Below are positions 8,648-62,047 of a stretch of DNA of 64,000 nucleotides, piece by piece (the stretch's first letter is position 1; every line of letters starts with the position of its first letter). The translations under genes were made by a program, and so were the position numbers. This DNA comes from Anaerolineaceae bacterium UBA6133. GTDB lineage: Bacteria; Chloroflexota; Anaerolineae; Anaerolineales; Anaerolineaceae. The stretch is from assembly GCA_002435825.1 (NCBI GenBank), contig DIVL01000028.1, forward strand, positions 4,985-68,984. Direction: 5' to 3'. The notes below the pieces were generated by a model. The model did no database searches. It had not been told where the DNA came from and saw only the letters and a list, made by a program, of their open reading frames with translations.

Positions 8648-8764
8648 TTTATTCTCCTTAGATTGTCATAAATCTGTCCTATTAACGTCATGTGGGGCTT
8701 TTTTGTTCCATTTTGATTCCCTGGCTTGGATATAATAAGGAGACAAACTGCCTTTAAGGAGAGT

Positions 8765-9931
8765 ATGCCGGTAAATTATGCTCAGTTAGAACACAGCCAG
8801 GGTCAATTCGCAGCCCAATACGCTGCCTGGCAGGCAGAACAAGCCGCCCGCTCTGCGGCGCTGCAGAGCCTGCTCAGCGAAGCCGCTGCGGATCCTGACC
8901 TGCTGCGCCAGGCAATTGAGGAGGCTGAACAACAGCTGACGAACCTCTACCTGGCAAAACCGACCAACGAGCCGATCCTGACCCACATGCCTCTGCCCCA
9001 GGCACCCGAGTGTTATACCCTGATTGCGGCAGATGGCTCCCAGATCGTCCCCAGCCGGCATCGTGCCTTGCAGTTCGGCGTGGTCAACGTCGGCTTGATC
9101 AAGGCGCACATTGGCAGTGGTGAACCCCCTGAGATCAGGGTTGAGACCGAATTGCTCGCCATGGACCAGATCCAGACCGATCAGGGAAATCTGATTGGCG
9201 AGGATGAAGTGGCGCTCCTGCGCGACCTGGCGGAGCGCAAATTGATCCGCCAGGCAGTCTCGCCTGAGGACCTTGAGCCTGTTATCACCCTCACCGATGG
9301 TCCGCTGGACGTCTTCTACCGCTCTACCATCCAGGGCGACCGGGGTCAGCAGGTGCAGCAGGAAGTCTTTGAAATTGACCAGGACTTACGGCAGCGCGGT
9401 GTGGTGACGGCCGGTTACATTGATAAGCCCGGTTCCGCCATGCTCAGCCGCATGCTGGCGATCTTCCAGTGCAAGCGCCAGGGCTTACCGCTCGAGTCCA
9501 ATAATCGCGAGCTCAACCTGAGCGACCGTTTCATCTTGCAGGAAATCCTGCGTTTGCCAGGAGAACGCTCCGCGATCTTCGAAGCCATCACCCGTAACGC
9601 CAGAAAACCTGCCAACAGCTTGCCGGTTGCGTTCTTTTACCTGAACGTCAGCTGTGATGAGACGGAATCCTGCCTGGTTCGCCTTGAATTCCCCCTGTGG
9701 GTTACCGAAGTGCCCGGCCTGGTGGACAAGCTGCATGCCGTGATCTACAAGGAAGCCCAGGTGCTTGATTCTCACCCTTACCCCTACCTCTTGCATCGGT
9801 CGCATGAGCTGGCCATTGTCAAGCGCATCGAAGCGGATGAGGTCGAAGTGATCTTGCAGAGCCAGCTTGATCCCCAGATTCGTGCCCGCCAACAACGTTC
9901 AAACAAAGATTACCTGAAAGGACTCTCATGA
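8765..9931 (+). CDS. nurA: NurA-family 5'-3' nuclease
   Basis: NurA-type blocks IAADGSQI (catalytic Asp), ITLTDGPL and GYIDKPGS. I place the start at the ATG at 8765 behind RBS AAGGAGAG; the track start at 8726 is a TTG. The stop overlaps the next ORF (ATGA). Confidence 0.7.
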   Translation: MPVNYAQLEHSQGQFAAQYAAWQAEQAARSAALQSLLSEAAADPDLLRQAIEEAEQQLTNLYLAKPTNEPILTHMPLPQAPECYTLIAADGSQIVPSRHRALQFGVVNVGLIKAHIGSGEPPEIRVETELLAMDQIQTDQGNLIGEDEVALLRDLAERKLIRQAVSPEDLEPVITLTDGPLDVFYRSTIQGDRGQQVQQEVFEIDQDLRQRGVVTAGYIDKPGSAMLSRMLAIFQCKRQGLPLESNNRELNLSDRFILQEILRLPGERSAIFEAITRNARKPANSLPVAFFYLNVSCDETESCLVRLEFPLWVTEVPGLVDKLHAVIYKEAQVLDSHPYPYLLHRSHELAIVKRIEADEVEVILQSQLDPQIRARQQRSNKDYLKGLS

Positions 9932-49867: not shown

Positions 49868-50150
49868 ATTTTTGCTGCTCCGTTTCAGTTATTTTTAAAT
49901 AAAAACACGCGCCGTAAAACTCCGGCGTGTGCTTCTGTCCACAACACAAGTATAGTACTGATCATCGTATCAGGCTAACTCCTGCATACATACATTATAG
50001 CCGGTGAGAGTCGTTTTTGCAATTCGAAAACGCGCTGCTATTGCAAGTATTTCGATATTAATGCCCAAATTTGGCAGTAGTTTGGGCTTCGGCGGACGGT
50101 CCATAAGGTATACTTCTATCATTCAATATTGCTTTCATTCAGGAGGAGCT

Positions 50151-51350
50151 ATGAAAAAGAGCGGCCTAAAAAAACGTGTTAATCTCCCAGCTTTGGTGCT
50201 TCTAACTTTGATGCCTGTAGGTTTGACCGCCTGCAGCCAAACCACCACACAAGCCAATTCGAGCGGACGGTGGGTGTCGATCGTGATGGGCATTTTGCTC
50301 CTGCTGGCTTACCTGGGATTGGTGATTTACCTTTGGCGCGTTGGCAAGCTGAGCACCTGGTTTGCTGCCGGCAGCGCCGCCGCCCGCCTCAAAGTTCAGG
50401 GCGTGCGCCTCAAGGGCGAACTGAAAGGGCTTGAACGCGATAAAAGCGATCTGCTGGACGAACTTGGCGAGAAAGCCTGGGCAGCCAGGGTCAGCGACCC
50501 AGCTTACGAGGGCGCATACAATCAGCTGCTGACGGTCCAGGGGCAGATCGACGGCGCGACGGATCATCGCCGTTCGCTCGAAGAGAAGAAAGTGGAGCTG
50601 GCTGAGCAGCGTAAGGACGTGGTGGAGCGTTTTTATCAGCAGATTGAGGCCTTGAAAAACCAACAAGCCGGCGTGGACCGCGACCTGAGCGAAGCGAAAA
50701 ATCGCGTGCGGGTACTCGAAGCAGATCTGGATGCAGCCGCGCAGGAAAAGAGCCGCTTCCAGCGCGACGTGAAAGACACCCGCGGACGCATCATCGAAAT
50801 GGAGCGCTCGGACGACCCCGACAAAGTGGAGCGGCTCGTTGAACTGAACAGCCGCCTGAGCAGCCTGACCACTTCTCTGCTGGATGCCACTAACGCCGAG
50901 CCGGAACTGGCAGCGCAGCTTCCCGCTCTGCAAAACCAGGCATTGGCACTGAGCACTCAGTTAAATGAACTGCAGGGTCAGATCCAGGCTTTGGAAGGTG
51001 ACCTGAAAAGTGAGCTGCTTCCCCTGGACGACCAACTTGAAGCCCTCGAAAAGCAGATCAAAACCAAGACCAGCGAGATCAAGACCTTTGGAGAGCAGTT
51101 AACTCCGATGGCAAAGGCTCTGGGCGCGCAGGTTGAAAAAGCCCGACCGCTTTCACCCGAGCTGACGGAGCTCTATCAAAAACTGGATATGATCCTCAGT
51201 ACGGTCGATTTCAAAGCGCAAGCCAAAGAGGACGTCTCGAGTAACCTCGGCACCGTCGATAAAACCGCTTCGCTCAATTTTTACATCTTGCTGCTGATCG
51301 GCGTCCTCATCATCGTCCTGGCGATCCTGCTCCTGACCGGAGTGATTTGA
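50151..51350 (+). CDS. Membrane-anchored long coiled-coil protein
   Basis: ATG behind AGGAGG. N-terminal signal with lipobox-like LTAC, a TM helix, a heptad-rich Q/E/L region of about 290 aa, and a C-terminal TM helix. Confidence 0.6.
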   Translation: MKKSGLKKRVNLPALVLLTLMPVGLTACSQTTTQANSSGRWVSIVMGILLLLAYLGLVIYLWRVGKLSTWFAAGSAAARLKVQGVRLKGELKGLERDKSDLLDELGEKAWAARVSDPAYEGAYNQLLTVQGQIDGATDHRRSLEEKKVELAEQRKDVVERFYQQIEALKNQQAGVDRDLSEAKNRVRVLEADLDAAAQEKSRFQRDVKDTRGRIIEMERSDDPDKVERLVELNSRLSSLTTSLLDATNAEPELAAQLPALQNQALALSTQLNELQGQIQALEGDLKSELLPLDDQLEALEKQIKTKTSEIKTFGEQLTPMAKALGAQVEKARPLSPELTELYQKLDMILSTVDFKAQAKEDVSSNLGTVDKTASLNFYILLLIGVLIIVLAILLLTGVI

Positions 51351-51387
51351 TCCCAGGGTCAACTTTCCCCCGAATTCCCACACCTGT

Positions 51388-53838
51388 TTGAAGGAGCATA
51401 TTACCTTGCCTAAACACACCCAAAACACCACTCAGATCCTTGAACAACTGACACTCGAAGAGAAAGCCTGGTTGATCTCAGGCGGAGGGGATTTTTGGCA
51501 CACGCGTGCCATCCCGAGGCTGGGCATTCCAGCGCTGACGCTGCACGACGGCCCCCACGGCTTGCGAAAAACGGTTCCAAAGGCGGGTCAAGCCGCTCTG
51601 GAGGGGAGCTATCCCGCCACCAGCTACCCCAGCCTGTCGGCGGTGGCCTGTTCGTTTGATCGGGAGCTGGTGTTTGCGCTTGGTCAGGCGCTTGGCGCGG
51701 AAGCCAAAGCCGCTGAGGTGGACGTCTTGCTGGCACCGGGCGTGAACATCAAGCGCCATCCCCTCAACGGGCGCAACTTTGAGTACTTTTCGGAAGACCC
51801 CCTGGTGGCAGGCGAGCTGGCAAGCGCTTATATCAGCGGCGTCCAGAACCAGGGCACGGCAGTCAGCCTGAAACATTTCGCCGCCAACAACCAGGAATTC
51901 TGCCGGATGATCAACAGCTCGGTTGTCGATGAGTGCGCCCTGCGCGAGATCTACCTGAAGCCTTTTGAGATCGTCATCCGCAAGGCTCAGCCCTGGACCG
52001 TGATGAGTTCCTACAACAAACTTAATGGCACCTACACCAGCGAGTATGAAATCCTTTTGACCAGTATCGCGCGGGAGGAGTGGGGTTTTGAAGGCTTATT
52101 CATGACTGATTGGGGCGGCATGAACGACCGCGCCAGCGCCATCCCCGCCGGCACGGACCTGGAAATGCCCCCGGTTGGTCAGTATGGCGTGGATCGCATC
52201 CTCGAGGGAGTGAAGTCAGGGAGGATTGCTAAGAGCGACCTGAACCGGGCGGTTGGCAAACTGCTGGAATTGATAGAGAAAGTGCGTCAAGTGCGCGAAC
52301 CTGCCAGAACCTGGCAGGCAGCAGATTTTGAGGCTGTCGCCAGGAAAGTCGCGCTCGAATCAGCGGTTCTGTTGAAAAACGAACAGGATCTTCTGCCGCT
52401 TCAGTCGGGAATAAACGTGGCGGTGATTGGCGCGATGGCCGAAAAGCCGCACTACCAGGGCGCGGGCAGCAGCCGTGTGAACCCACGCCGGATGGTGTCT
52501 TTAATGGATGCCCTGCGCGAAGAGCAGCAGGATTGGTCTTATGCCCAAGGCTACGAATTGAGCGGGAAGGACAACGCGCAGCTTGAACAGGAAGCGCTGG
52601 ATCTCTGCCAGGGGAAGGACGCCGTACTGTTCTTTGCCGGCTTGCGCGATGTTGAAGAAGCCGAAAGCTACGACCGCCTGCACCTCGAACTTTCCGCGGC
52701 ACAAAACGCCCTGATCGAGCGGATCGCCTCCGAAAACCCGAATGTGGTCGTGGTGCTGCATGCCGGCTCGCCGGTGCGTTTACCCTGGCTCGGCAAAGTC
52801 AAAGCCGTGCTGCTGATGGGGCTTGGTGGGCAGATGGTGGGCGCAGCCGCGCTCGACCTACTGCTGGGGCGCGCCAACCCCTGCGGCAAGCTGGCAGAAA
52901 CCTGGCCGCTGGCATTGGAAGACACGCCGGCATTTGCTCAGTTTGGCAAGCGCTTCAACACCCAGTATCGCGAGAGCGTCTTTGTCGGCTATCGCTTCTA
53001 CCAGACCTTTGCCAAACCGGTTAGTTTTCCGTTTGGATTTGGCTTGTCTTATACCAGCTTCAGTATTGACAACCTTGAAACCAGCCAAACTAGCCTGGAG
53101 CCCGGCGAAACGCTGGAAGTAAGCGTGAGGGTCAGCAACACCGGCTCACGGGCGGGCAAAGAAGTCCTGCAGTTATACGTCTCGCCGCCCGCGTCCGCCA
53201 TTTTCCGTCCCCAAAAAGAATTGAAAGCTTTTGCGAAAGTGGAGCTCGCGCCTGGCGAGAGCCAGACGGTCCTCTTCAGGCTGCAGCATGCCGACTTCGC
53301 GGTTTGGAATACGCTTGTTCACACCTGGCACTGCGAGGCGGGCGAATACCGCCTAATGGTGGGCACATCCGCCGCTGACACCCCGCTTGAGGCGAGGGTG
53401 GTGCTGGAGAGCGACCAGCCTGGCGTGAGCGTGCCGGATTACACCCATTCTGCGCCTGGCTATTACGCTTATAACACTGGCGCTCTAAACACTTCGGCTG
53501 CGGCTTTTGAAGCCATTTACGGCAGTCCGCTGCCGCTTGACCCGCAGGGGGAGCCCAGGGTGTATGACCTCAACTCCTCGCTCTGGGATGCGCGCAATCG
53601 CGTCAGGGGTAAGCTGCTCGCGGCGGTCCTTGGCAGGGCTGGCCGCAAGCGGGCGTCAGAAGAGGGGGAATACCAGGAAGTCAATGACCGCATCGTGCAG
53701 GCTTCGATTCTGAATGCCCCCTTGCGCTCATATGCTGTCGGTGGCTCACCGATGCGAGTCCCCGAAGCCATCGCCCTGTTCCTGAACGGCAAGGTCTTCC
53801 GCGCCATCCGGAAGCTGTTAGAGAAAGACAAGGCGTAG
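51388..53838 (+). CDS. GH3 beta-glucosidase with C-terminal Fn3-like domain
   Basis: LTLEEKAWLISG, GPHGLR, KHFAANNQE, nucleophile block FMTDWGG, and the Fn3-like region EVLQLYVSPP. The start may instead be the TTG at 51406, behind AAGGAG. Confidence 0.9.
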   Translation: MKEHITLPKHTQNTTQILEQLTLEEKAWLISGGGDFWHTRAIPRLGIPALTLHDGPHGLRKTVPKAGQAALEGSYPATSYPSLSAVACSFDRELVFALGQALGAEAKAAEVDVLLAPGVNIKRHPLNGRNFEYFSEDPLVAGELASAYISGVQNQGTAVSLKHFAANNQEFCRMINSSVVDECALREIYLKPFEIVIRKAQPWTVMSSYNKLNGTYTSEYEILLTSIAREEWGFEGLFMTDWGGMNDRASAIPAGTDLEMPPVGQYGVDRILEGVKSGRIAKSDLNRAVGKLLELIEKVRQVREPARTWQAADFEAVARKVALESAVLLKNEQDLLPLQSGINVAVIGAMAEKPHYQGAGSSRVNPRRMVSLMDALREEQQDWSYAQGYELSGKDNAQLEQEALDLCQGKDAVLFFAGLRDVEEAESYDRLHLELSAAQNALIERIASENPNVVVVLHAGSPVRLPWLGKVKAVLLMGLGGQMVGAAALDLLLGRANPCGKLAETWPLALEDTPAFAQFGKRFNTQYRESVFVGYRFYQTFAKPVSFPFGFGLSYTSFSIDNLETSQTSLEPGETLEVSVRVSNTGSRAGKEVLQLYVSPPASAIFRPQKELKAFAKVELAPGESQTVLFRLQHADFAVWNTLVHTWHCEAGEYRLMVGTSAADTPLEARVVLESDQPGVSVPDYTHSAPGYYAYNTGALNTSAAAFEAIYGSPLPLDPQGEPRVYDLNSSLWDARNRVRGKLLAAVLGRAGRKRASEEGEYQEVNDRIVQASILNAPLRSYAVGGSPMRVPEAIALFLNGKVFRAIRKLLEKDKA

Positions 53839-53865
53839 AACGCTCTAAAAGAAAACTGGTCAAGG

Positions 53866-54050
53866 TAGAGGTACCCCCCCGTGGTTACCCATTTTGGTCG
53901 AGGCAGGCCGTCGACCCTACGAGGCTAATTTTATCCACGGTTGCCATAGGGAAAAGGACTGCCTTTTCCACAACTTCTTGGTTGACGCATCCCACAAGGG
54001 GAGGTTTCACACTGCGTCGCCTCTACTGCTCCTTACGGCAAGATTTTCAA
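53866..54050. repeat. gtagg-type composite palindromic repeats at the left edge of the low-GC segment
   Basis: cccccgtggttaccc...ggtcgaggcaggccgtcgaccctac, ggaaaaggactgccttttcc and gcatcccacaaggggaggtttcacactgcg modules, shared with 5185-5600 and 58640-59030. Confidence 0.7.
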
Positions 54051-54308
54051 GGCAATCTGAAGATGTTTGAGAGATAAGGCGGCCTAACCGTTATTTTGTA
54101 ATCCAGGATTGATACACAAAAATAATTGTGTATCAATTCGACCTAAAAATGATATACAAATCACAAGAAATCAATCAAACCCATGAAAGCGATTATGTCG
54201 GGCTTGCCAGTCTATGCAAGCGTGAGTGGAGAAAAACTCACTATTTCAATCTTCAGGTTTGTAAACCGCTGATGTAAAAGGCTATAAGGTGTTAAGAGAT
54301 TTAAGGTC

Positions 54309-54725
54309 CTAAGAACCAAGAACCTTTTTCAGTGCCTTTAACTGGTTCCCGAATGACAGACCTTCAAACGGTATTTTGTAATTACGCATATATGGAAGTA
54401 GAAATTCCCGATATTTATTGCCAGCAAGAATGATGAATTCATCTTGCTTGAGATCAGCATATTTGCGAAGCTCAGAAATCACTCCAGAAGCCCAGGCTCG
54501 CCTTTCTTGAACTGGCATCTGATTCAAAGTTTTTTCATAAGGGGCAATTCTGTCATTAAGCTTCAATAACCCATATTTTGCAGAGAGAATGAATATGTAA
54601 TCGGGTTTTAGCTTCCTGGCATAAGCAAGGTTTTTCACGAATAAATCACTGATGTATAGATCTTCCGCTTTTGCAAGGTGATCTAATTTGGTTTTGACAC
54701 AAGAAATCAATACTATCCGTTTCAT
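54309..54725 (-). CDS. DUF6884-like protein of unknown function
   Basis: 138 aa. The blocks RIVLISCVKTK, AEDLYISDLF and FILSAKYGLLKLNDRIAPYEKTL match my recollection of the DUF6884 pattern. The ATG overlaps the upstream stop (ATGA). AT-rich codon usage. Confidence 0.6.
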   Translation of the reverse strand: MKRIVLISCVKTKLDHLAKAEDLYISDLFVKNLAYARKLKPDYIFILSAKYGLLKLNDRIAPYEKTLNQMPVQERRAWASGVISELRKYADLKQDEFIILAGNKYREFLLPYMRNYKIPFEGLSFGNQLKALKKVLGS

Positions 54726-55471
54726 AAACCCACCCTTTCACAACAGGTATTCAAAGGACATGAGGTACATTCAGGATTGGTTGGGTGGCACCAATTCCTT
54801 CCAATTGACCAAAGAGGGCCATCGATCGCACCAGGATATGCAGGGCTGAGTTGTCGGGCGGCGATTATTGCTTCCGTTTCATTGATGGCAGGAGAAACGC
54901 CGAGACGGTAAAGAACACGCATGGTGTGGACATCGGGTTTGATATCCACGTTTGCATAATCAAGATCTGAGAATGTGAGATGATAAAGGCCTTCAATTAA
55001 AACAAGGCTCATATTGGCAATGCCGCTTCCGACGCCAAACACAGATAACAATGTTCGCTTTACATCAGTAGCACGGCGGTTTTTCCAGATGTTTTCAGCA
55101 TTACCTTCGAACTTCTCTACAACGATCTTGCATATTTCTTGAAATGTACGGGGAGCCGCGTTGGTATAGCGAGGCTTCTGAGGTAATTCGTCGAATAGAG
55201 ATGCTATTTTATCCGGGCTTAATGTGTAGAAACGCGAAGGATTGTAGTGGCCCACCTGTTGATAGAGCCAATAAGGAATAGTCCAGATGATCTCTGCTTT
55301 TGTGCCTCTATCCAGGCAGCAGGCAGAGATAAAAGCAAAACTGTTATCGTGGATGAGTTGAACTGCTTCAGGGGTTTTCGCAGGGGTTAATTCTTCCTGA
55401 TCAAAGACGGCTTTATATTGCATCAAGGCATTTAGAATAGGCTGGTAATGAGGCATAATATCCTGTTCCAA
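54722..55471 (-). CDS. HhH-GPD superfamily DNA glycosylase with Endo III-type [4Fe-4S] cluster loop
   Basis: HhH FGVGSGIANM, Asp block IKPDVHTMRVLYRLG (compare VDTHIFRV), and C-terminal CHPTNPECTSCPLNTCC, which fits C-X6-C-X2-C-X5-C. The start is TTG 55471 or, more likely, ATG 55456. Confidence 0.8.
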   Translation of the reverse strand: MEQDIMPHYQPILNALMQYKAVFDQEELTPAKTPEAVQLIHDNSFAFISACCLDRGTKAEIIWTIPYWLYQQVGHYNPSRFYTLSPDKIASLFDELPQKPRYTNAAPRTFQEICKIVVEKFEGNAENIWKNRRATDVKRTLLSVFGVGSGIANMSLVLIEGLYHLTFSDLDYANVDIKPDVHTMRVLYRLGVSPAINETEAIIAARQLSPAYPGAIDGPLWSIGRNWCHPTNPECTSCPLNTCCERVGL

Positions 55472-55484
55472 TCATCAATAAAAA

Positions 55485-55973
55485 CTATTTCAGTTTTTCT
55501 TCAATAAGATCCCACCGATTGAAATATGCAGAAATATCCCAATAATAGGGAGATTTGCGGGGAGGTAACAATAACCCACGAACACTATTATCATTATGGG
55601 GTTTGCCATTTCTCCCCGGCCTCTTTAGCCAATCTCTATGCTTCTGGGTGACATTTTCGGCCATCGCACGATTGGGAATGATGTAGTATTCGAAACTTTT
55701 ACCAGTGTAGGGAAGTGGAATTCCACCAAGAACCCAGAAGAAGTTCTCCCCAAAATATTTCTCTGCTTTTTTACCTACGCTACAGGTTCGAATGCCTGGA
55801 ACATAAGTCTTTACTTGAATATGTACAAATTTAGTGCCATCATTATTCGAACAAAGGATGTCTGTATTTGGTGTATTACCCAATGTCACAACAGCCGAGT
55901 AACCTCTTCGGCACAATTCACCTGCAACAAAAAACTGACTAGCATTTCCTCGTGAAGATTTATCAACGCCCAT
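55485..55973 (-). CDS. Small PD-(D/E)xK-like (Hjc/DUF4365-style) nuclease-fold protein
   Basis: 162 aa. GNASQFFVAGELCRRGYSAVVTLGNTPNTDILC...FVHIQVKT fits the E...D...(E/Q)xK layout of archaeal-resolvase-like nucleases. The RBS GAGAGGA lies upstream of the ATG. Confidence 0.55.
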   Translation of the reverse strand: MGVDKSSRGNASQFFVAGELCRRGYSAVVTLGNTPNTDILCSNNDGTKFVHIQVKTYVPGIRTCSVGKKAEKYFGENFFWVLGGIPLPYTGKSFEYYIIPNRAMAENVTQKHRDWLKRPGRNGKPHNDNSVRGLLLPPRKSPYYWDISAYFNRWDLIEEKLK

Positions 55974-55994
55974 ACTAATATATCCTCTCTAAAG

Positions 55995-56927
55995 TTAATC
56001 CACAAATTCCTCATAATCTTCAAGGACAGTGTGAGAAAGATTGCCTAAATGCTTCTCTTTGGATAATTCCCGGACACTGTCATAAGAAAGATATGTGCAG
56101 TACTGGGACAGCGCTCCTTTTTCGAGAAGAGAGAAAACTGGTCTTTGGATTTCAGAAAATACTTTTTCCTTGCGTTCTTCTGGTGCGACAATGTGGAGTT
56201 TAATATCCATGTTAGGTTGTAGAGCCAACAGGTCTGCCATTCGGAGAATTCCCGAATAGATAGAAGTGGTGTGCTCAATTTCAAAAGCCCTGACAATGGA
56301 CCTTCTTCTAAGCCATAAGACATCTATTTGTTCGATGGTTTTTATTGTCACTACATCGTAATTCAAGGGCAGGGTGTTGAGCAGGACATCTCCCTCTGGT
56401 TTCCATTCTTGCAGGACCAGATTACGGTCATTCCTGGGTAACCAAATCTTGAACCCCATTTTTTCCCCGATTAATGCGAGAAGGGTTTGAATTTTTACAG
56501 ATTCCCTGACCTCTTTCTCTTCGATCACCTCACCTGAATGGTTATCATTATCTTCTGGTATTGACACAGGAACATCTATCTGGTGAATTGTAGTGGTGCG
56601 GGTAAGATGTTTTTCATAAAGCTCATTATCAAGATGATATTCTTCAGGATTTTGAGATTGATTTTTTAACAACTTAAATAAGTAATCTCCGTCGCTATTA
56701 TCAATCAGTTTTAGACTACTACGAAGTGGACCGGTCCATTGTGAACCTTCTTTGGGCAGGTTAGCAGTAAAAGACAGGTTGTTCCAGACTAAATCTTCTC
56801 TTATCGGAATCCCGAATTCTGGATCTAAGACAACAAGGGGTTTTACTTTGAACCTAACAACAAAAGGATCCTCATTAGAGACAAAGCGTGGGGTTGAGTC
56901 TTCAAACATTTCACTAGTGATTTGCAA
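55995..56927 (-). CDS. Two-domain protein: N-terminal beta-rich domain of unknown type plus C-terminal restriction-endonuclease-like domain
   Basis: 310 aa. After an acidic linker, the C-terminal half reads IQTLLALIGEKMGFKIWLPRNDRN...IEQIDVLWL...RAFEIEHTTSIYSGILRMADLL...LHIVAPEERK, a D...ExE(H) beta-strand pattern compatible with a PD-(D/E)xK core. The start is TTG 56927 or ATG 56909. Confidence 0.5.
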   Translation of the reverse strand: MQITSEMFEDSTPRFVSNEDPFVVRFKVKPLVVLDPEFGIPIREDLVWNNLSFTANLPKEGSQWTGPLRSSLKLIDNSDGDYLFKLLKNQSQNPEEYHLDNELYEKHLTRTTTIHQIDVPVSIPEDNDNHSGEVIEEKEVRESVKIQTLLALIGEKMGFKIWLPRNDRNLVLQEWKPEGDVLLNTLPLNYDVVTIKTIEQIDVLWLRRRSIVRAFEIEHTTSIYSGILRMADLLALQPNMDIKLHIVAPEERKEKVFSEIQRPVFSLLEKGALSQYCTYLSYDSVRELSKEKHLGNLSHTVLEDYEEFVD

Positions 56928-57230
56928 TGCACCAACCTACCTGGATACTTTTGTTAGATAACAGATCAAAATGTCGCCGGGCTTGAGTTTGCTGGCAGCG
57001 TTTTTCTGTTTGGGTCTAAAACCCGTGATGTCTCTTGAGGAATTTAAGAAAGCCTTATAGGTCAGAGGAGAGAATAAATCTAAGTAGTAAGCCATAAAAC
57101 CCCTTTCAACGAAAACGGGCGGGTAGGAAACTAGCTGCAGGCTAGATTGGCATAAATTTGCTCAATGGAATTATAGCATCAAGGATATGAGGTTATAGCT
57201 TTGATTAGCATGTAGATACCGTCTTGAAAG

Positions 57231-58211
57231 TCAAGCTGAATAATTGAATTGGCGGTCATAATCAGGATCAAAAGGCATCTGAGACTTCAAAACGCCATAA
57301 ACAATGTGCAGCAACTTTCGCATGCAAGCCGCGATAATCGCCATGGTGGGCAGCTGTTTCTTTTCCAAGCGTTCCTTCAAAGCCCGGACCACGGGATTGT
57401 GTATCATCGCCACGATGGCTGGCATATACAGACAGGCACGCAATTCGCTGCGGCCTTGTTTGGAGATACGAGTTTTCTTGTGCACGGATGAGCCTGAACT
57501 AAAGCCCTTCGGATTGAGACCGGCATAAGCAGCTAATTGTGGCGCATTTTCAAAGCGGCTGATCTCCCCAATTTCACCCAATAATCTGGCAGAGGTTTTA
57601 TTGCCAACTCCAGGAATGGAAACCAAAAGCTCCTGCTTTGCCTTCAGGTCAGGTGTCTGGTTGGTGAAGTTCTGGATCTCTGCTTCAGTGGCTTGGATGC
57701 GTGCTTTCAAGTACTCTACGTGGACGGATAGATCCTGGATAACCCAGGCATCCTTCTCCCCACTCGACAAGCGGTTTTCTTCCTGTCGGTAATTAGCCTG
57801 TAAATCAATCAAACGCCTCACGAGTGCCCTTAGATGCTTCAAATCGGGGCTGAGAGGCTCCCACAGAGCAGGTTTCTCCTTCAAACAAAACTCGGCAATC
57901 AGGTCAGCATCCGCCTTATCGGTCTTATTGCGGTGTAGCTTGCTTTCCCCATAGCGTTTGATGCGAGTCGGATTGACCACACTGACGTCATGGCCTTGTG
58001 CGTAAAGATACTCACTGACCTCGTCCCCATATTGTCCGGTGGCTTCCAGGCAAACGTGTACCCGGTCGATACGTCGGCAGATCAACCATTTATCCAGCGT
58101 TTTGAAACCAGCTGGATCGTTGCTAATAACCTTATGGAACTTTCCCTCTTCATGGAGTAGTACCAAATCAAGTTTATCCTTGGAGACGTCGATACCTAAA
58201 ATATTTGACAT
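57231..58211 (-). CDS. IS110-family transposase (DEDD RuvC-like N-domain plus C-terminal Ser domain)
   Basis: ILGIDVSKDKLD, VCLEATGQYG, KTDKADADLIA, LVSIPGVGNKTSARLLGEIG and RISKQGRSELR. Confidence 0.92.
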   Translation of the reverse strand: MSNILGIDVSKDKLDLVLLHEEGKFHKVISNDPAGFKTLDKWLICRRIDRVHVCLEATGQYGDEVSEYLYAQGHDVSVVNPTRIKRYGESKLHRNKTDKADADLIAEFCLKEKPALWEPLSPDLKHLRALVRRLIDLQANYRQEENRLSSGEKDAWVIQDLSVHVEYLKARIQATEAEIQNFTNQTPDLKAKQELLVSIPGVGNKTSARLLGEIGEISRFENAPQLAAYAGLNPKGFSSGSSVHKKTRISKQGRSELRACLYMPAIVAMIHNPVVRALKERLEKKQLPTMAIIAACMRKLLHIVYGVLKSQMPFDPDYDRQFNYSA

Positions 58212-58425
58212 TCTGTACCTCTTTTCTGTAAACTATGTTTAGCATCGGTCAGGCGCATTCATTGGATCATCCTTGTGAATGCAGGCTCATCTCGTCCATT
58301 TCATATCTTAGAGAGGCTTTAGATACCGTCCGATCTTTGTGAAAAAAAGGTGAGGGGATCATATCTACGTAACTGGATCTTGTCCATAGGGCGAGACCGG
58401 ATTCACCCTCACCTTCCTGATCGAT
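58212..58425 (-). ncRNA. Candidate IS110 bridge (guide) RNA region in the transposase 5' non-coding end
   Basis: It occupies the position expected for IS110-subgroup bridge RNAs. There is a long-range 9-bp stem aggtgaggg/ccctcacct (58348-58414) enclosing about 49 nt. An 11-nt segment (58320-58330) is identical to the sequence just past the transposase stop (57213-57223). Transcription has not been demonstrated. Confidence 0.45.
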
Positions 58426-58426
58426 G

Positions 58427-59035
58427 TTATTCAATTATCACGCCTTTCTGAGTTTTAATATACAAGGGCGGAATGGCGCGTTCCTGCCCCGCGATTCTGT
58501 TCGCGGGGTTCGCCACTCCGCCAACGATGTGGATGTCGGAGCGAGCCTGCGCAAGGCTTGTATGGAAATAACGCTTTGAGGCAGTCTCGTTCCGACCTAC
58601 ACAAAACCCCGTTCTGACCCGGGCAGGCACGGCCTTTACTTACCTAAGATCGTCGTAGGGAACTGGCCTGCCTGTTCCTCGTTGTGATTAGGTCGAGGCA
58701 TCCCGCAAGGGGAGGCTTTACACGCCGTCGACCCTGCCCGGAAAACCTACAAATCAAGTAAAGAAAGCGGTTGAACGGACAGGCGTTCCCATTGTGGGTG
58801 TTTGAGGCAACTATTATCTGCGTATTAAATATGAAGTAGTTTTCTCGGACAGCCCAAAGCCGGATTGAACCCCGCAATCCGGCCTACGAAAATAAAAAAG
58901 CAGGCGAGCGCACACACGTTCCCTCGCCTGAAAACGTAATCCATAATGGCCTATTATGTTTCTATGGTAGGGGTAACCCCCGTGGTTAACCGCGGTCTTG
59001 ACCGAGCAGGCAACGAGGCCTGCCCCTACAAATAA
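58427..59035. repeat. Composite cluster of gtagg-type palindromic repeats abutting the IS110 left end
   Basis: Shares the conserved hairpin element with 5330-5420. Also contains gccggattgaaccccgcaatccggcctac and gtaggggtaacccccgtggttaaccgcggtcttgaccgagcaggcaacgaggcctgcccctac; the latter recurs at 61858-61945. Confidence 0.75.
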
Positions 59036-59046
59036 AAACTTTTCAG

Positions 59047-60294
59047 CTATCTCTCGATAAGCGGCAAATATATCTTAAAGATAACTTGCTCAAAGTTCGC
59101 AGTAACATTTGTATCTCCCAATATTGTGATAATTAAGGGATTATCGGTGCTATTTGCGTCACCACTCCAATTTGTAAATTCCCAATCCGGGACGGCAGTG
59201 GGTATCAAGGTTACCTGGTCCCCATAATGATAAAAATCCTTTATGGGATCAACCAAAACCGAACCAGAATCAACAGGACCGACAGTTACTGTCAGTGAGT
59301 ATTCGATCTGTGTGAAATTCGCAGTGATACTCGTGTTACCTTCGATGGTCAAAGTCAGCGGGCTCTCTGTTCCTGTCGCATCTCCACCCCAGCCAGAGAA
59401 AGTCCAGCCAGTCTCAGCAATTGCGGTGAGAGTAACCTCATCCCCGTAGTGGTAAACAGTCTGCTCAGGGTCTACTGTTACAGTGCCTGAATTCGTCGGA
59501 TCAACAGTCACAACGAGCGAATATTCATCTGTAAAATTAGCGGTAATGTTGGTGTTGCCCGTAATTGTAACTTCCAGTGGATTTTCGATGCCTGTTGCAT
59601 CTCCACTCCATTCTGTCAACGCCCAGCCGGTATTTGGGCTGGCTGTCAGCATTACAGTATCCCCATAATGATAGGTAGCTTGTTGTGGATCAACCAAAAC
59701 CGAACCAGAATCAACCGGATCAACCGAAACGTTGAGCGTGTACTCATTTTGTATGAAGTTCGCAGTGATACTGGTATCGTCCAGGATACTGATAGTTAGT
59801 GGATTAGTAGTGCCTGTAGCATCCCCGCTCCAGCCTGAAAAGCTCCAGCCAGGATCGGCTAAGGCAGTCAGGCTGACAATTTCTCCAAATTGGTATTCGG
59901 TTTGATTAGGATCTATAGCAACCGAATCGCTGCCCTCTATGTCCACTGTCAGTGTAAAAACTTCTGGGTATGAGTCATATTCATAGGCACCCATATCGCA
60001 GGTCGCTGATGTATTTTCGTCCCCGTCAATCGGGCGATGAAATCCGCGCTGGTCGATGGCAGGGCAAAGGGTTGGGCTGCCAGCGTCGATTGCCGGGCTT
60101 AGATCGCCAAGGGCATGAGTTTGAGTAAAGCCGCCATTTTCCGCCAGGTCTTCTAAGAGCGGGTCAGTATTGAGGTTGCCATCGCCTTCCCACACGGGCT
60201 CGCCCTGAATGATGCTATAAGTTATTGTAGGGAAGGAATAGACAATAAAACTTAATTGGTCAGGCGTGTTTCCCCAAAAGATCGAATTGGTCAC
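59047..60294 (-). CDS. C-terminal part of a surface protein: end of the beta-helix plus four InlB-B-repeat-like modules (probably the 3' half of a frameshifted gene)
   Basis: It begins (GTG) TNSIFWGNTPDQ, which continues the beta-helix repeat of the upstream ORF. Four modules of about 75 aa follow: Y(T/S)L.V.VDP..SG.V.VDP.Q..Y.YGD.V.LTA....GW.F..WSGDATG..NPL...I.G.T.ITANF. Confidence 0.7.
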   Translation of the reverse strand: MTNSIFWGNTPDQLSFIVYSFPTITYSIIQGEPVWEGDGNLNTDPLLEDLAENGGFTQTHALGDLSPAIDAGSPTLCPAIDQRGFHRPIDGDENTSATCDMGAYEYDSYPEVFTLTVDIEGSDSVAIDPNQTEYQFGEIVSLTALADPGWSFSGWSGDATGTTNPLTISILDDTSITANFIQNEYTLNVSVDPVDSGSVLVDPQQATYHYGDTVMLTASPNTGWALTEWSGDATGIENPLEVTITGNTNITANFTDEYSLVVTVDPTNSGTVTVDPEQTVYHYGDEVTLTAIAETGWTFSGWGGDATGTESPLTLTIEGNTSITANFTQIEYSLTVTVGPVDSGSVLVDPIKDFYHYGDQVTLIPTAVPDWEFTNWSGDANSTDNPLIITILGDTNVTANFEQVIFKIYLPLIER

Positions 60295-61550
60295 TGGGGG
60301 CTGCTTCTTTCGCTTTTCATTGCACCACCGCCGGAAGGAGAAGCGGTGTTACCATAAAAGGTGACGTTGGTCATTATGCCGCTGAAGTAATAGTTGCTCA
60401 TCCCACCGCCCGACACTGTGGCAGTATTGCCAGAAAAGGTCACATTGGTCAAAGTGGAGCTGCTTTCACTGTTACTCATCCCACCGCCATTGTAGCCCGT
60501 GTTATGAGAAAAGGTTGTATTGGTAATTGTGGGTGAACTTCTCCAGTTATGCATCCCACCTCCAGCATCATCCGCGCTATTACCGGAAAAGATCACGTTG
60601 GTCAGGTTTGAATTGCAGTTTGAAGAATTAGCAATTCCACCGCCCGACGAAGTGGCAGTATTATCAGAAAAGGTCACGTTATTAAGCGTAGGGCTGCTGT
60701 GGTCGTAGTTGAGCATCCCACCACCACTACCAGTTGCCGAGTTACCGGAAAAGGTGACATTGGTCAGGGCAGGGCTGCAGCTTGTGTAGTTGTACATCCC
60801 GCCACCACCACCAGTTGCTGTATTACTGGAAAAAGTCACATTCGTCAGGATAGGATTGCTGCTATAGAGATTGTACATCCCACCACCACGGTTAGTGACG
60901 ATGTTGTTGGAAAAATCGACATTCGTCAGAGTGGGGCTGCCGTTGTCGTTATATATTCCGCCGCCGTAAGCCGCCAGGTTGCCAGAAATGATAACATTCT
61001 TCAGCGTTGGACTGCTGCTCAGAAGCTTCATCCCGCCGCCTACTTTTTGAACAGCATACCCGCCATTGGCATTGGCGGCAGTGATGGTGAAGCCGTCCAG
61101 GATCGTAGTGTCGCTCAAACCGCTGCCGGTGACCACGTGGAAGCTGTTGTCTGCGTTACTTTCTTCAGTGCCGATATCCCCGCTCAGGGTGGTGAGGTTG
61201 GTTTCCCAGTCGCGCTCGGCGAGGCTGGTTTCCGTTCCAGCAAAACCGCCATAAATGGCCACGCCTGATCCTAATAAGAAAGTAGCGGTGCGATCGGTGC
61301 CAGTGGTGGGTTTGTAGATGCCTGCTGCGACCCACACCTGGTCCCCTGCTTCAGCCAGAGCCAAGGCATCTTGCAGATCACAGGCGGTCTCCCAGCTGGA
61401 GCAGTCTCCCTCCTCCCCCGGCTTGACATAAAGGATTGTGCTTTGCGTTTGAGCAATGGTCGGGCTGGCACTTGCACTGCTCAAGCCCAGGTTGAGAAAA
61501 AGCAAAACTGCAATTATTAGGACGGTTAGCACTGGATTCTTGGTGTTCAT
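60291..61550 (-). CDS. N-terminal part of a surface protein: signal peptide plus right-handed beta-helix with Pmp-like GGG(M/I)xN / SSPxLTNVTFSxN repeats
   Basis: Signal peptide MNTKNPVLTVLIIAVLLFLNLGLSSASA, then about 12 tandem repeats of 20-23 aa. It terminates in the middle of a repeat at a homopolymer. Confidence 0.7.
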   Translation of the reverse strand: MNTKNPVLTVLIIAVLLFLNLGLSSASASPTIAQTQSTILYVKPGEEGDCSSWETACDLQDALALAEAGDQVWVAAGIYKPTTGTDRTATFLLGSGVAIYGGFAGTETSLAERDWETNLTTLSGDIGTEESNADNSFHVVTGSGLSDTTILDGFTITAANANGGYAVQKVGGGMKLLSSSPTLKNVIISGNLAAYGGGIYNDNGSPTLTNVDFSNNIVTNRGGGMYNLYSSNPILTNVTFSSNTATGGGGGMYNYTSCSPALTNVTFSGNSATGSGGGMLNYDHSSPTLNNVTFSDNTATSSGGGIANSSNCNSNLTNVIFSGNSADDAGGGMHNWRSSPTITNTTFSHNTGYNGGGMSNSESSSTLTNVTFSGNTATVSGGGMSNYYFSGIMTNVTFYGNTASPSGGGAMKSERSSPQ

Positions 61551-61799
61551 AGAAGCATCTCCTGTTTTTAGACCCGGTCACGTCATAAAACCAAACTCAC
61601 ATCGAAACATAAATAAAACCATTTGCTTGTTGGTTTTGCCACCCTGCCTGAAAAAGCAACAGTTCATTTTATGTTGTGGTTTATTTTAGTCTATTCCATG
61701 TCATTTAATTGAAATTCCAATCAAAAAGCGTGAAATTGATCATTTGTACCTCCTGGGGGTATTCGACCCTATATTTGTTCTCACTGGTGTCCTGATACC

Positions 61800-61960
61800 C
61801 TCCACTTTGTTGCGGGCACTTGCAGCGCGAGGGGGTTGAGCGCAAGGTCTCCGTCGGTAGGGGTAAGCCCTTGGGCACCACTCCCTTGAGAGCCGTGGTT
61901 ACTCGCGGTTTTTACCGGGCAGGCACGAGGCCTGCCCCTACTCCGAGGTTATTTCCTGAC
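61800..61960. repeat. gtagg-type composite repeat next to tRNA-Gly
   Basis: gtaggggtaagccc...ccgtggttactcgcggtttttaccgggcaggcacgaggcctgcccctac is the same element as 58968-59030, with an insertion of about 27 bp. Confidence 0.7.
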
Positions 61961-61975
61961 GGAATTAACCAAAAA

Positions 61976-62047
61976 AGCGGGCGATCGGATTCGAACCGAC
62001 GAATGTTAGCTTGGAAGGCTAATGCCTTACCACTTGGCGACGCCCGC
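61976..62047 (-). tRNA. tRNA-Gly (anticodon UCC), CCA not encoded
   Basis: Manual cloverleaf on the minus strand: acceptor GCGGGCG/CGCCCGC, anticodon stem UUAGC/GCUAA with loop CUUCCAA, T arm GUCGG-UUCGAAU-CCGAU, discriminator U. Confidence 0.9.

Follow-up and report, generated by a model that had tools for sequence, protein, structure and literature searches.

A putative defence islet in an Anaerolineaceae genome, probably made of separable modules and including a candidate glycosylase–DUF6884 pair

Four genes packed on the minus strand of an AT-rich stretch of chromosome raise the question of whether they work as one DNA-targeting system or are several systems that share a site. The genes lie in a segment of 64,000 nucleotides from Anaerolineaceae bacterium UBA6133 (assembly GCA_002435825.1, contig DIVL01000028.1, positions 4,985 to 68,984 of the forward strand), which is called the window below and to which all coordinates refer. 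The initial annotation of the window, made from its sequence alone, had proposed a single four-gene system. The analysis described here upheld the defence-related, horizontally acquired character of the genes. As to their unity, the locus is probably a small, horizontally acquired defence islet on the 3' side of a tRNA-Gly gene, composed of three separable modules: gene 1, gene 2, and the pair formed by genes 3 and 4 (numbered in the order of transcription).

The islet (54026–57215, given without strand) was delimited from the composition profile and from the ends of synteny blocks, its edges being the start and the end of the blocks shared with the relatives L016, L019 and L094 (labels of this type denote the loci compared). 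Its GC content is about 0.41. The individual genes range from 0.38 to 0.45 (0.34–0.42 at third codon positions), as compared with 0.53 for the window, about 0.58 for the flanks and 0.58–0.62 for the adjoining GH3 gene, which bears out the AT-rich composition noted at the outset. The four minus-strand open reading frames (ORFs) are present as first described, separated by gaps of 21 and 13 nt (the latter widens to 28 nt with the ATG at 55456 as the start of gene 3) and by one 4-nt overlap, and profile scans found no methyltransferase, ATPase or helicase among them. Tight gene packing in an AT-rich islet, taken alone, does not mean that the genes form one system.

Conservation and linkage of the four genes

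The full set of genes is confined to close relatives within the Anaerolineales (L001–L004, L014, L016, L019, L032 and L094–L099). Among 80 loci of reference genomes that carry a gene 2 homologue, the complete set is present in four, all from Anaerolineales, and genes 1, 3 and 4 are missing from the remaining 76. Gene 1 is present together with gene 3 in six of 80 metagenomic loci, all of them from close relatives; gene 2 is present together with gene 3 in 13 of 80, to which one weak match can be added, and in all of these gene 3 shows at least 72% identity. Synteny of the kind expected of a four-gene system is therefore found in close Anaerolineales and essentially nowhere beyond them. Smaller sets also exist: L005 has genes 1 and 2 only, at the same chromosomal site, while L100–L105 and L177 have genes 2, 3 and 4 and lack gene 1. 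Even where the four genes stand together, their identities are uneven. The copies in L016 are 90, 70, 93 and 93% identical to genes 1 to 4 of the window, and those in L001 are 87, 69, 84 and 66% identical. Such mosaic identities (L001, L016, L019 and L094 compared with 54309–57095) point to a cassette-wise replacement of alleles inside the islet.

Only genes 3 and 4 stay linked across deep divergence. Their linkage was assessed on 84 loci with a gene 3 homologue (80 metagenomic loci and four long contigs), 73 of which were testable. In 70 of these 73 loci, and in 55 of the 58 in which gene 3 is less than 70% identical to the window copy, the gene 3 homologue has a gene of the DUF6884/YaaA families no more than 1.8 kb away. 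This partner follows it downstream in the same direction in 54 cases, precedes it in the same direction in 10, and is convergent with it in six; half of the partners belong to the YaaA family, whose members are annotated as peroxide stress proteins.

The two genes are also fused. An exhaustive profile search with the gene 3 domain returned 292 clusters at E ≤ 1e-30, many of them of 330–920 aa, and at least five of the ten long members examined (P0383, P0409, P0439, P0456 and P0478) combine DUF6884 with the gene 3 domain, often together with DUF7662. In one long member the gene 3 domain is joined to McrB_N and AAA_5. Because adjacency has been kept despite rearrangement and fusion has occurred repeatedly, the comparison of sequences provides strong evidence that the products of genes 3 and 4 act together.

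Other domains were met among the long homologues. P0288, P0299, P0308, P0331 and P0336 proved not to be DUF6884 fusions and carry GNAT or unassigned domains instead. DUF7662 (72 aa) recurs in fusions with the DUF6884 and glycosylase domains (P0369, P0383, P0456 and P0478), which suggests that in other lineages it may belong to the module as a third recurring part. Another domain, of about 95 aa and marked by the motif KYPPKYLIAVA, is fused at the N-terminus of P0331 and at the C-terminus of P0336 (PF26345), and is also encoded upstream of the gene 3 homologues in L130, L140, L147 and L158; its interpretation as a ScoMcrA-like reader was unsupported, as no match was obtained in Pfam or in the PDB.

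The weak point of a division into three modules is gene 2. Throughout the subclade in which gene 3 is at least 72% identical, gene 2 stands directly upstream of gene 3, even in the absence of gene 1, and its full independence is not proven. It is conceivable that the unit present here comprises genes 2, 3 and 4, with the pair making abasic sites at which the gene 2 protein would cleave, and with gene 1 as an unrelated neighbour. The spacing of 14–41 nt between gene 2 homologue and gene 3 in all 12–13 loci of this subclade, including those without gene 1 (L100–L105 and L177), favours such a unit, as does the fact that in the latter loci gene 2 has kept its position while diverging to 50–61% identity. 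On the other hand, genes 3 and 4 are missing from the 76 genomic gene 2 loci counted above, gene 2 is missing from 55 of 58 distant gene 3/4 pairs, and it is found without the pair on a conjugative plasmid and in mobile elements. In addition, the identity of gene 2 is out of step with that of its neighbours (70 versus 93%), which suggests independent replacement. On balance a unit of genes 2, 3 and 4 appears rather unlikely, although gene 2 may serve the neighbouring pair in this lineage.

A single novel defence system made of all four genes, in which removal of a modified base by the glycosylase is followed by strand cleavage by the two nuclease-fold proteins, is largely refuted by the synteny census, and we consider it highly improbable. 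The tight co-directional packing speaks for such a system, as do the conservation of the four-gene order in several related metagenomic contigs and the fact that DNA is a plausible target of all four proteins. However, the quartet is restricted to one narrow lineage (gene 1 accompanies only four of 80 gene 2 loci and six of 80 gene 3 loci), the sub-combinations all occur (gene 1 alone, gene 2 alone, 1+2, 2+3+4 and 3+4), gene 1 has the architecture of a self-sufficient reader and nuclease, and in this genome it is inactivated while genes 2–4 are intact. Excision followed by cleavage fails as a four-gene scheme; it may survive in a reduced form for the pair of glycosylase and DUF6884 protein, possibly with the addition of gene 2 in one subclade.

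Gene 1 and gene 2

Gene 1 (55995–57095, minus strand; 366 codons) codes for an EVE (PUA-like) domain followed by a PD-(D/E)xK-type NmeDI_C domain, and is a pseudogene in the window. The ORF of 310 aa that had been taken as the first gene of the operon is in fact the 3' part of this longer gene, which is cut by a premature amber codon, TAG, at codon 53 (56937–56939, minus strand). A 52-aa ORF (56937–57095) precedes it in the same frame, with this TAG as the sole separator, and the 52-aa ORF and the N-terminus of the 310-aa ORF match successive parts of one EVE-like profile. When joined, the 366-aa product has more than 5,600 homologues, nearly all of 366 aa and aligned end to end, which carry PF01878 (EVE) and PF27126 (NmeDI_C) according to precomputed annotation. 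The amber codon, seen in the sequence and in its translation, replaces a tryptophan (W53, TGG to TAG) that is present in 21 of 21 aligned homologues, and none of 13 full-length relatives contains an internal stop. Reassignment or read-through of TAG was considered and rejected, as TAG ends six of the 35 long ORFs of the window, genes 2 and 4 among them. Since TAG replaces an invariant residue and is an ordinary stop in the window, gene 1 is classed as a pseudogene and, on the evidence of its sequence, is dead in this genome. Speaking against this, the amber amounts to a single G-to-A difference, which could in principle be a sequencing error. The possibility that the genes are degraded fragments, which would have told against the original proposal, is borne out by the nonsense codon in gene 1 and by nothing in genes 2–4.

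In an Anaerolineaceae metagenome-assembled genome (L032:7480–7560, CAZOYK010000064.1), the orthologue of gene 1 is divided between two frames, the break falling inside a GGGGAAAAATGGGG run and reflecting either a second, independent inactivation of gene 1 or a homopolymer assembly error.

The N-terminal 130–140 residues of gene 1 form the EVE/PUA-like domain. The single sequence gives a Pfam EVE match of E = 0.005, and the family profile compared with the PDB gives MJECL36 (E = 3e-6, residues 1–131) and PH1033 (E = 4e-5), both EVE-like and within residues 1–142. The beta-rich N-terminal domain that had been left unassigned in the 310-aa ORF corresponds to the C-terminal two thirds of this domain. 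For the other half of the protein the endonuclease-like assignment first made was confirmed, both by a match to the PADLOC model REase_II (1e-16, residues 195–352) and by the Pfam NmeDI_C domain of the homologues; it contains the invariant motif IDVLW...FEIEHTT and the invariant residues D258, E272, E274 and H275.

The homologues of gene 1 that are about 60% identical have varied surroundings: the one in L008 stands alone amid housekeeping genes, that in L010 is at the edge of a helicase/methylase island, and that in L012 lies beside a uracil-DNA glycosylase gene. There is no methyltransferase gene in the cluster, nor near the homologues in L008 and L012, and the methylase in L010 is part of the neighbouring helicase/methylase operon. 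From its EVE and nuclease domains, its stand-alone homologues and the EVE fusions already catalogued, gene 1 is therefore predicted to have the architecture of a self-contained type IV (modification-dependent) restriction endonuclease of a known kind, in which the EVE/PUA-like domain would serve to read a modified base and the NmeDI_C domain to cut. Fusions of EVE with PD-(D/E)XK domains were catalogued in 2020 as predicted type IV restriction enzymes (PMC7641849), and their EVE-HNH relatives were shown to cut DNA containing hydroxymethylcytosine (hmC) or methylcytosine (mC) (Lutz et al. 2019, PMC6765204). Gene 1 resembles these enzymes in having an N-terminal EVE/PUA-like reader and a C-terminal nuclease on one polypeptide, in lacking a cognate methylase, and in standing alone in distant genomes or sometimes in restriction-modification (R-M) islands. 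It differs from the EVE-HNH enzymes in its nuclease, which is of the NmeDI_C type and not HNH, and in the nonsense inactivation of the window copy. Literature searches found no biochemical characterization of the EVE + NmeDI_C subfamily to which gene 1 belongs. A scan for sigma-70 promoters and terminators gave no excess of sites over chance expectation, and between the adjacent IS110 element and the ATG no promoter could be clearly assigned to gene 1.

Gene 2 (55485–55973, minus strand) codes for a stand-alone protein of 162 aa with a PD-(D/E)xK fold. About 1,900 homologues of 162–165 aa were retrieved, none of which has a Pfam domain, and sequences about 70% identical are spread over Chloroflexota, Proteobacteria, Cyanobacteria, Verrucomicrobiota, Planctomycetota and archaea. 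The AlphaFold2 (AF2) model (pLDDT 87) contains an alpha-beta-beta-beta core composed of helix 5–22 and strands 26–30, 37–42 and 49–57, and Foldseek matched it best with I-Ssp6803I (template modelling (TM) scores 0.57/0.62) and the DREN domain of SPARDA, and further with MepB and SwaI, in agreement with the PD-(D/E)xK, DUF4365-like assignment of the initial annotation. E19, D38 and Q53-V-K55 are invariant in the family, so that the position of the middle acidic residue is occupied by an invariant glutamine (Q53) instead of D or E. This substitution is compatible with a variant active site, but also with a protein that binds without catalysis. Like I-Ssp6803I and the DREN (DUF4365) domain of SPARDA, gene 2 has a compact PD-(D/E)xK core with the glutamate on helix 1, the aspartate on strand 2 and the x-K element on strand 3. 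The likeness is at the level of the fold only, with 10–16% identity and TM scores of 0.4–0.6, and gene 2 differs from them in having Q53 for D/E, in not being encoded in an intron and in lacking any link to Argonaute. PADLOC gave no match for gene 2, even at permissive thresholds. Its neighbours in other genomes include type I R-M genes with HARE-HTH, transposases with methylase fragments, a MobA/TraG element and the genes of a conjugative Burkholderia plasmid. On these data gene 2 appears to represent an uncharacterized family, highly conserved and sporadically distributed, that is found in R-M and defence islands and in mobile elements.

The glycosylase–DUF6884 pair and its possible functions

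Gene 3 (54722–55471, minus strand) was confirmed to be a glycosylase of the endonuclease III (EndoIII)/MutY type, i.e. a divergent [4Fe-4S] helix-hairpin-helix (HhH-GPD) protein, by its motifs, by profile comparison and by structure matches. Its likely start is the ATG at 55456, which gives a protein of 244 aa; this start is supported by the relatives, which are called at 244 aa. The hairpin GVGxGIANM is invariant (G141-V-G143...N148-M149), as is K173-P-D175-x-H177-T178, which aligns with the catalytic VDTH of EndoIII. The four cysteines of the C-x6-C-x2-C-x5-C loop (C223, C230, C233 and C239) are invariant in 22 sequences, and the homologues give weak matches to EndIII_4Fe-2S. The family profile matched EndoIII in the PDB over its full length (E = 1e-6). 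The AF2 model (pLDDT 94.2) has a two-domain, all-helical HhH-GPD fold; with Foldseek it matched EndoIII 1orn (E = 9e-6, TM 0.61/0.68), and EndoIII, MUTYH, MutY and MIG were all found at TM scores of 0.6–0.7. The 42 matches with E ≤ 1e-3 are nearly all EndoIII, MutY/MUTYH, MIG and NTHL1, in addition to the DUF2419 queuine-salvage enzyme. As the lysine that forms the Schiff base in the bifunctional EndoIII is replaced by glycine (GVGSGIA in gene 3, GVGRKTA in EndoIII), gene 3 is predicted to be monofunctional, and we infer that it is a monofunctional Fe-S DNA glycosylase.

The sequence of gene 3 falls in no Pfam family, and the NCBIfam models closest to it scored below their cut-offs (TIGR03252, 53.6 bits against 136.5; nth, 21.5 bits against 211.7). 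No PADLOC v2 model matched gene 3, its distant homologues or the gene 3 domain, even when permissive thresholds were used, and the family is absent from the 2.9 million viral contigs and from the plasmids searched. By these comparisons it is a distinct, unnamed family inside the HhH-GPD superfamily.

Gene 4 (54309–54725, minus strand; 4-nt overlap with gene 3) codes for a DpdC-like protein of 138 aa of the YaaA superfamily. Its assignment to DUF6884 was confirmed by Pfam (PF21818, 2e-45, 154.6 bits against a cut-off of 30). It also matches the PADLOC model PDC-M57A from end to end (2.5e-57), and the DpdC model weakly (about 1e-4). Genes 1–3, the distant homologues of gene 3 and the fusion proteins have no match to the PDC-M57 models, and no paper on PDC-M57 was found in a literature search. 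At least 35 of 37 partners of gene 3 (at least 95%) share C9, K13 and the region L47-S-A-K-Y-G52 (L47-S48-A49-x-x-G52); the corresponding CxxxK and LSAxxG motifs of DUF6884 have been described (PMC11701544).

DpdC, which is a DUF6884 protein (PMC11888242) and the only one characterized biochemically, converts preQ0 into ADG in duplex DNA with no need for DpdA or DpdB (PMC10164549, PMC11888242), and YfjM of Bacillus subtilis, also a DUF6884 protein, was enriched on baits with abasic sites and ribonucleotides (PMC10220248). In addition, the Fusobacterium phage phiFN37 (L179, OR492271.1:72128–72562) has a DUF6884 gene, 45% identical to gene 4, that lies between a queuine tRNA-ribosyltransferase (TGT/DpdA-like) gene and a queuosine-precursor (preQ) transporter gene. 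This neighbourhood implies that stand-alone DUF6884 proteins may have a role in the 7-deazaguanine modification of phage DNA.

The structures of the genes, their folds and motifs, the statistics of their linkage, the fusions and the neighbourhoods are observed, whereas the substrate, the catalysis and the defence phenotype of the pair are inferred. Gene 3 would flip out and excise a non-canonical base from invading DNA, probably a hypermodified one and possibly of the 7-deazaguanine type, leaving abasic sites. Gene 4 could then process or trap the abasic site, thus supplying the lyase-type step that is missing from the lysine-less gene 3; as an alternative, it could recognize or convert the modified base for gene 3. 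Both roles are suggested because of its conserved Cys/Lys pair and of its relatives DpdC, acting on preQ0 in duplex DNA, and YfjM, found on abasic-site DNA. On this basis, we tentatively suggest that gene 3 and its DUF6884/YaaA-like partner, either separate or fused, could be a widespread and hitherto undescribed two-component immune module based on base excision, in which the DpdC-like subunit would recognize or convert a hypermodified purine (e.g. a 7-deazaguanine derivative) or trap the abasic site, the glycosylase would excise the base, and modified phage DNA would be destroyed with no classical nuclease. This is a possibility to be entertained, and not yet the probable explanation.

The neighbourhoods of the pair are consistent with such a role. 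It is found between a BREX operon and UvrD/SNF2 helicases (L175) and, together with a restriction endonuclease, in an island that splits a Mg-chelatase gene (L177), while in L176 gene 3, whose partner was not found there, comes right after a DISARM-like operon of GmrSD_N, helicase, MZB and PLD genes. In a census of 141 non-redundant neighbours at 50 distant loci, the partner ranks first, followed by ResIII, UvrD and SNF2 helicases, type I R-M subunits, D12 methylases, DrmA/DrmD as called by PADLOC (E = 0), BrxH and ZacC.

Some observations weigh against an immune role. The census of defence neighbours was made for the gene 3/4 pair with no matched control such as the housekeeping Nth. The context of the L109–L121 group looks ordinary (permease, methyltransferase, GlmS). 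In L174 (GCA_029980365.1), the gene next to the glycosylase and YaaA-like pair, on the opposite strand, is a SRAP gene (8727–9413), which fits repair equally well. Finally, the link with 7-deazaguanine draws on the distant homology with DpdC (E of about 1e-4) and on one phage neighbourhood. SRAP proteins are abasic-site sensors of the HMCES/YedK type, and the position of the gene in L174 may be due to chance or be a hint of abasic-site chemistry.

These points raise the question of whether genes 3 and 4 act instead in the base-excision repair of endogenous damage (oxidative, alkylation or abasic sites), their presence in islands reflecting horizontal transfer. The fold and motifs of gene 3 are those of repair glycosylases, the peroxide stress annotation applies to half of the partners, YfjM binds abasic and ribonucleotide lesions (PMC10220248), and the SRAP gene of L174 and the housekeeping neighbourhoods of some loci would find a ready explanation. 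Repair nevertheless seems improbable: gene 3 loci recur beside BREX, DISARM, GmrSD and type I R-M genes, the gene 3 domain is fused to a McrB-like type IV module in one member, the distribution is sporadic and mosaic and is associated with AT-rich DNA, and defence glycosylases of the same superfamily are documented (Dag).

Immunity based on glycosylases that act on modified phage DNA is a very recent finding (Brig1, Dag, END), and all the examples so far are single proteins. Dag1–17 are glycosylases of the HhH superfamily that restrict phages whose DNA contains 7-deazaguanine (Getz et al., bioRxiv 10.1101/2025.10.29.685425). Gene 3 shares with Dag1–17 and with Brig1 (Hossain et al. 2024) a glycosylase fold encoded in mobile, AT-rich, defence-associated loci and the predicted excision of modified bases from phage DNA, and it belongs to the same HhH structural superfamily as Dag. 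Those proteins are single-gene effectors, whereas gene 3 almost always comes with a DUF6884/YaaA-like partner, to which it is often fused. Moreover, Dag1 has a Lys/Asp pair and is apparently bifunctional, whereas gene 3 lacks the lysine and has an EndoIII/MutY-type [4Fe-4S] cluster; gene 3 is set apart from the Dag families by the descriptions of the latter, and not by sequence comparison. In the END nucleases, an inactivated EndoIII domain is the sensor for hypermodified DNA and is combined with a PLD nuclease (PMC12191111). The gene 3 family is similar to these in its EndoIII-fold domain, in its fusion with McrB_N and AAA_5, and in following a PLD gene in L176. In contrast with the END sensor, which has lost its catalytic residues, gene 3 keeps the invariant aspartate and the Fe-S cluster and is predicted to be active, and its partner is a DUF6884 protein and not a PLD nuclease.

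As for gene 4, it has the CxxxK and LSAxxG motifs in common with DpdC and PDC-M57A as members of DUF6884; unlike gene 4, DpdC has a length of about 310 aa and acts alongside DpdA and DpdB, both absent here. No TGT-like (DpdA) or DndB-like gene was detected among the ORFs in 50000–61000. A literature search for YaaA together with glycosylases and defence returned nothing relevant.

A DNA self-marking role of the DpdA/DpdC type for genes 3 and 4, with the adjoining nucleases as its restriction arm, is most unlikely. In its favour, DUF6884 is the domain of DpdC, which modifies the base in situ in DNA, the phage DUF6884 gene lies inside a 7-deazaguanine modification cluster, and nuclease genes do stand beside the pair in the window. 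Against it, base exchange is not known for HhH-GPD enzymes, the cluster showed no genes for the synthesis of preQ0 or another precursor, and the pair is not accompanied by the nucleases in a conserved manner. A module that modified its own DNA would also be at risk of self-restriction from a neighbouring reader nuclease of the EVE type.

In about 95% of loci a DUF6884/YaaA-like protein is linked or fused to the gene 3 family. If the pair is indeed a defence module, DUF6884 would have a biological role outside the Dpd system. The pair would also represent a two-component variant of base-excision restriction, as well as a new tool for the detection of modified bases.

Borders and remaining content of the variable segment

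The islet is part of a larger variable segment (54026–61975) that lies wholly on the 3' side of the tRNA-Gly(TCC) gene (61976–62047, minus strand; ARAGORN), as in classical genomic islands; no integrase gene was seen in it. Synteny with L001 and L005 breaks at 61976/61971, which is the 3' end of the tRNA gene. In addition to the islet, the segment contains an IS110-family insertion sequence and two repeat-protein genes.

The insertion sequence (57216–58464, minus strand) adjoins the islet, as had been noted from the start; its transposase ORF (57231–58211) matches the Pfam families DEDD_Tnp_IS110 (1e-25) and Transposase_20 (1e-26). As L019 joins the positions corresponding to 58465 and 57215 directly, the element (about 57216–58464) is private to the window, and it lies about 120 bp upstream of the start codon of gene 1.

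A repeat search revealed an imperfect direct repeat of 45 nt, whose two copies bracket the islet and the IS110 element. The left copy (53980–54024, plus strand) abuts the islet and the right copy (58691–58735, plus strand) is 80% identical to it; the core occurs only twice in the 64-kb window, where chance would give 0.12 occurrences. Both copies are able to fold into a hairpin, and the differences between their stems look compensatory. The repeat could be an element similar to repetitive extragenic palindromes (REP-like), the remnant of an attachment (att) site or a small structured RNA; an Rfam scan of the island borders gave only a chance match to a miRNA (E = 0.65). A shorter, loop-less version of the repeat and a second short repeat are present nearby (53896–53918; 53869–53890 and 58968–58990).

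The two repeat-protein genes (59047–61550, minus strand) are adjacent and code for proteins of 415 and 419 aa. One of the proteins consists of tandem repeats of about 70 aa of the type ...GDATG...NPL...I...NT.ITANF..., and the other has right-handed beta-helix-like repeats, GGG(M/I)YN...SSP.L.NV.FS.N.A, together with a signal peptide. Both genes are present in L019 and absent from L001 at this site, and they therefore belong to the same variable region.

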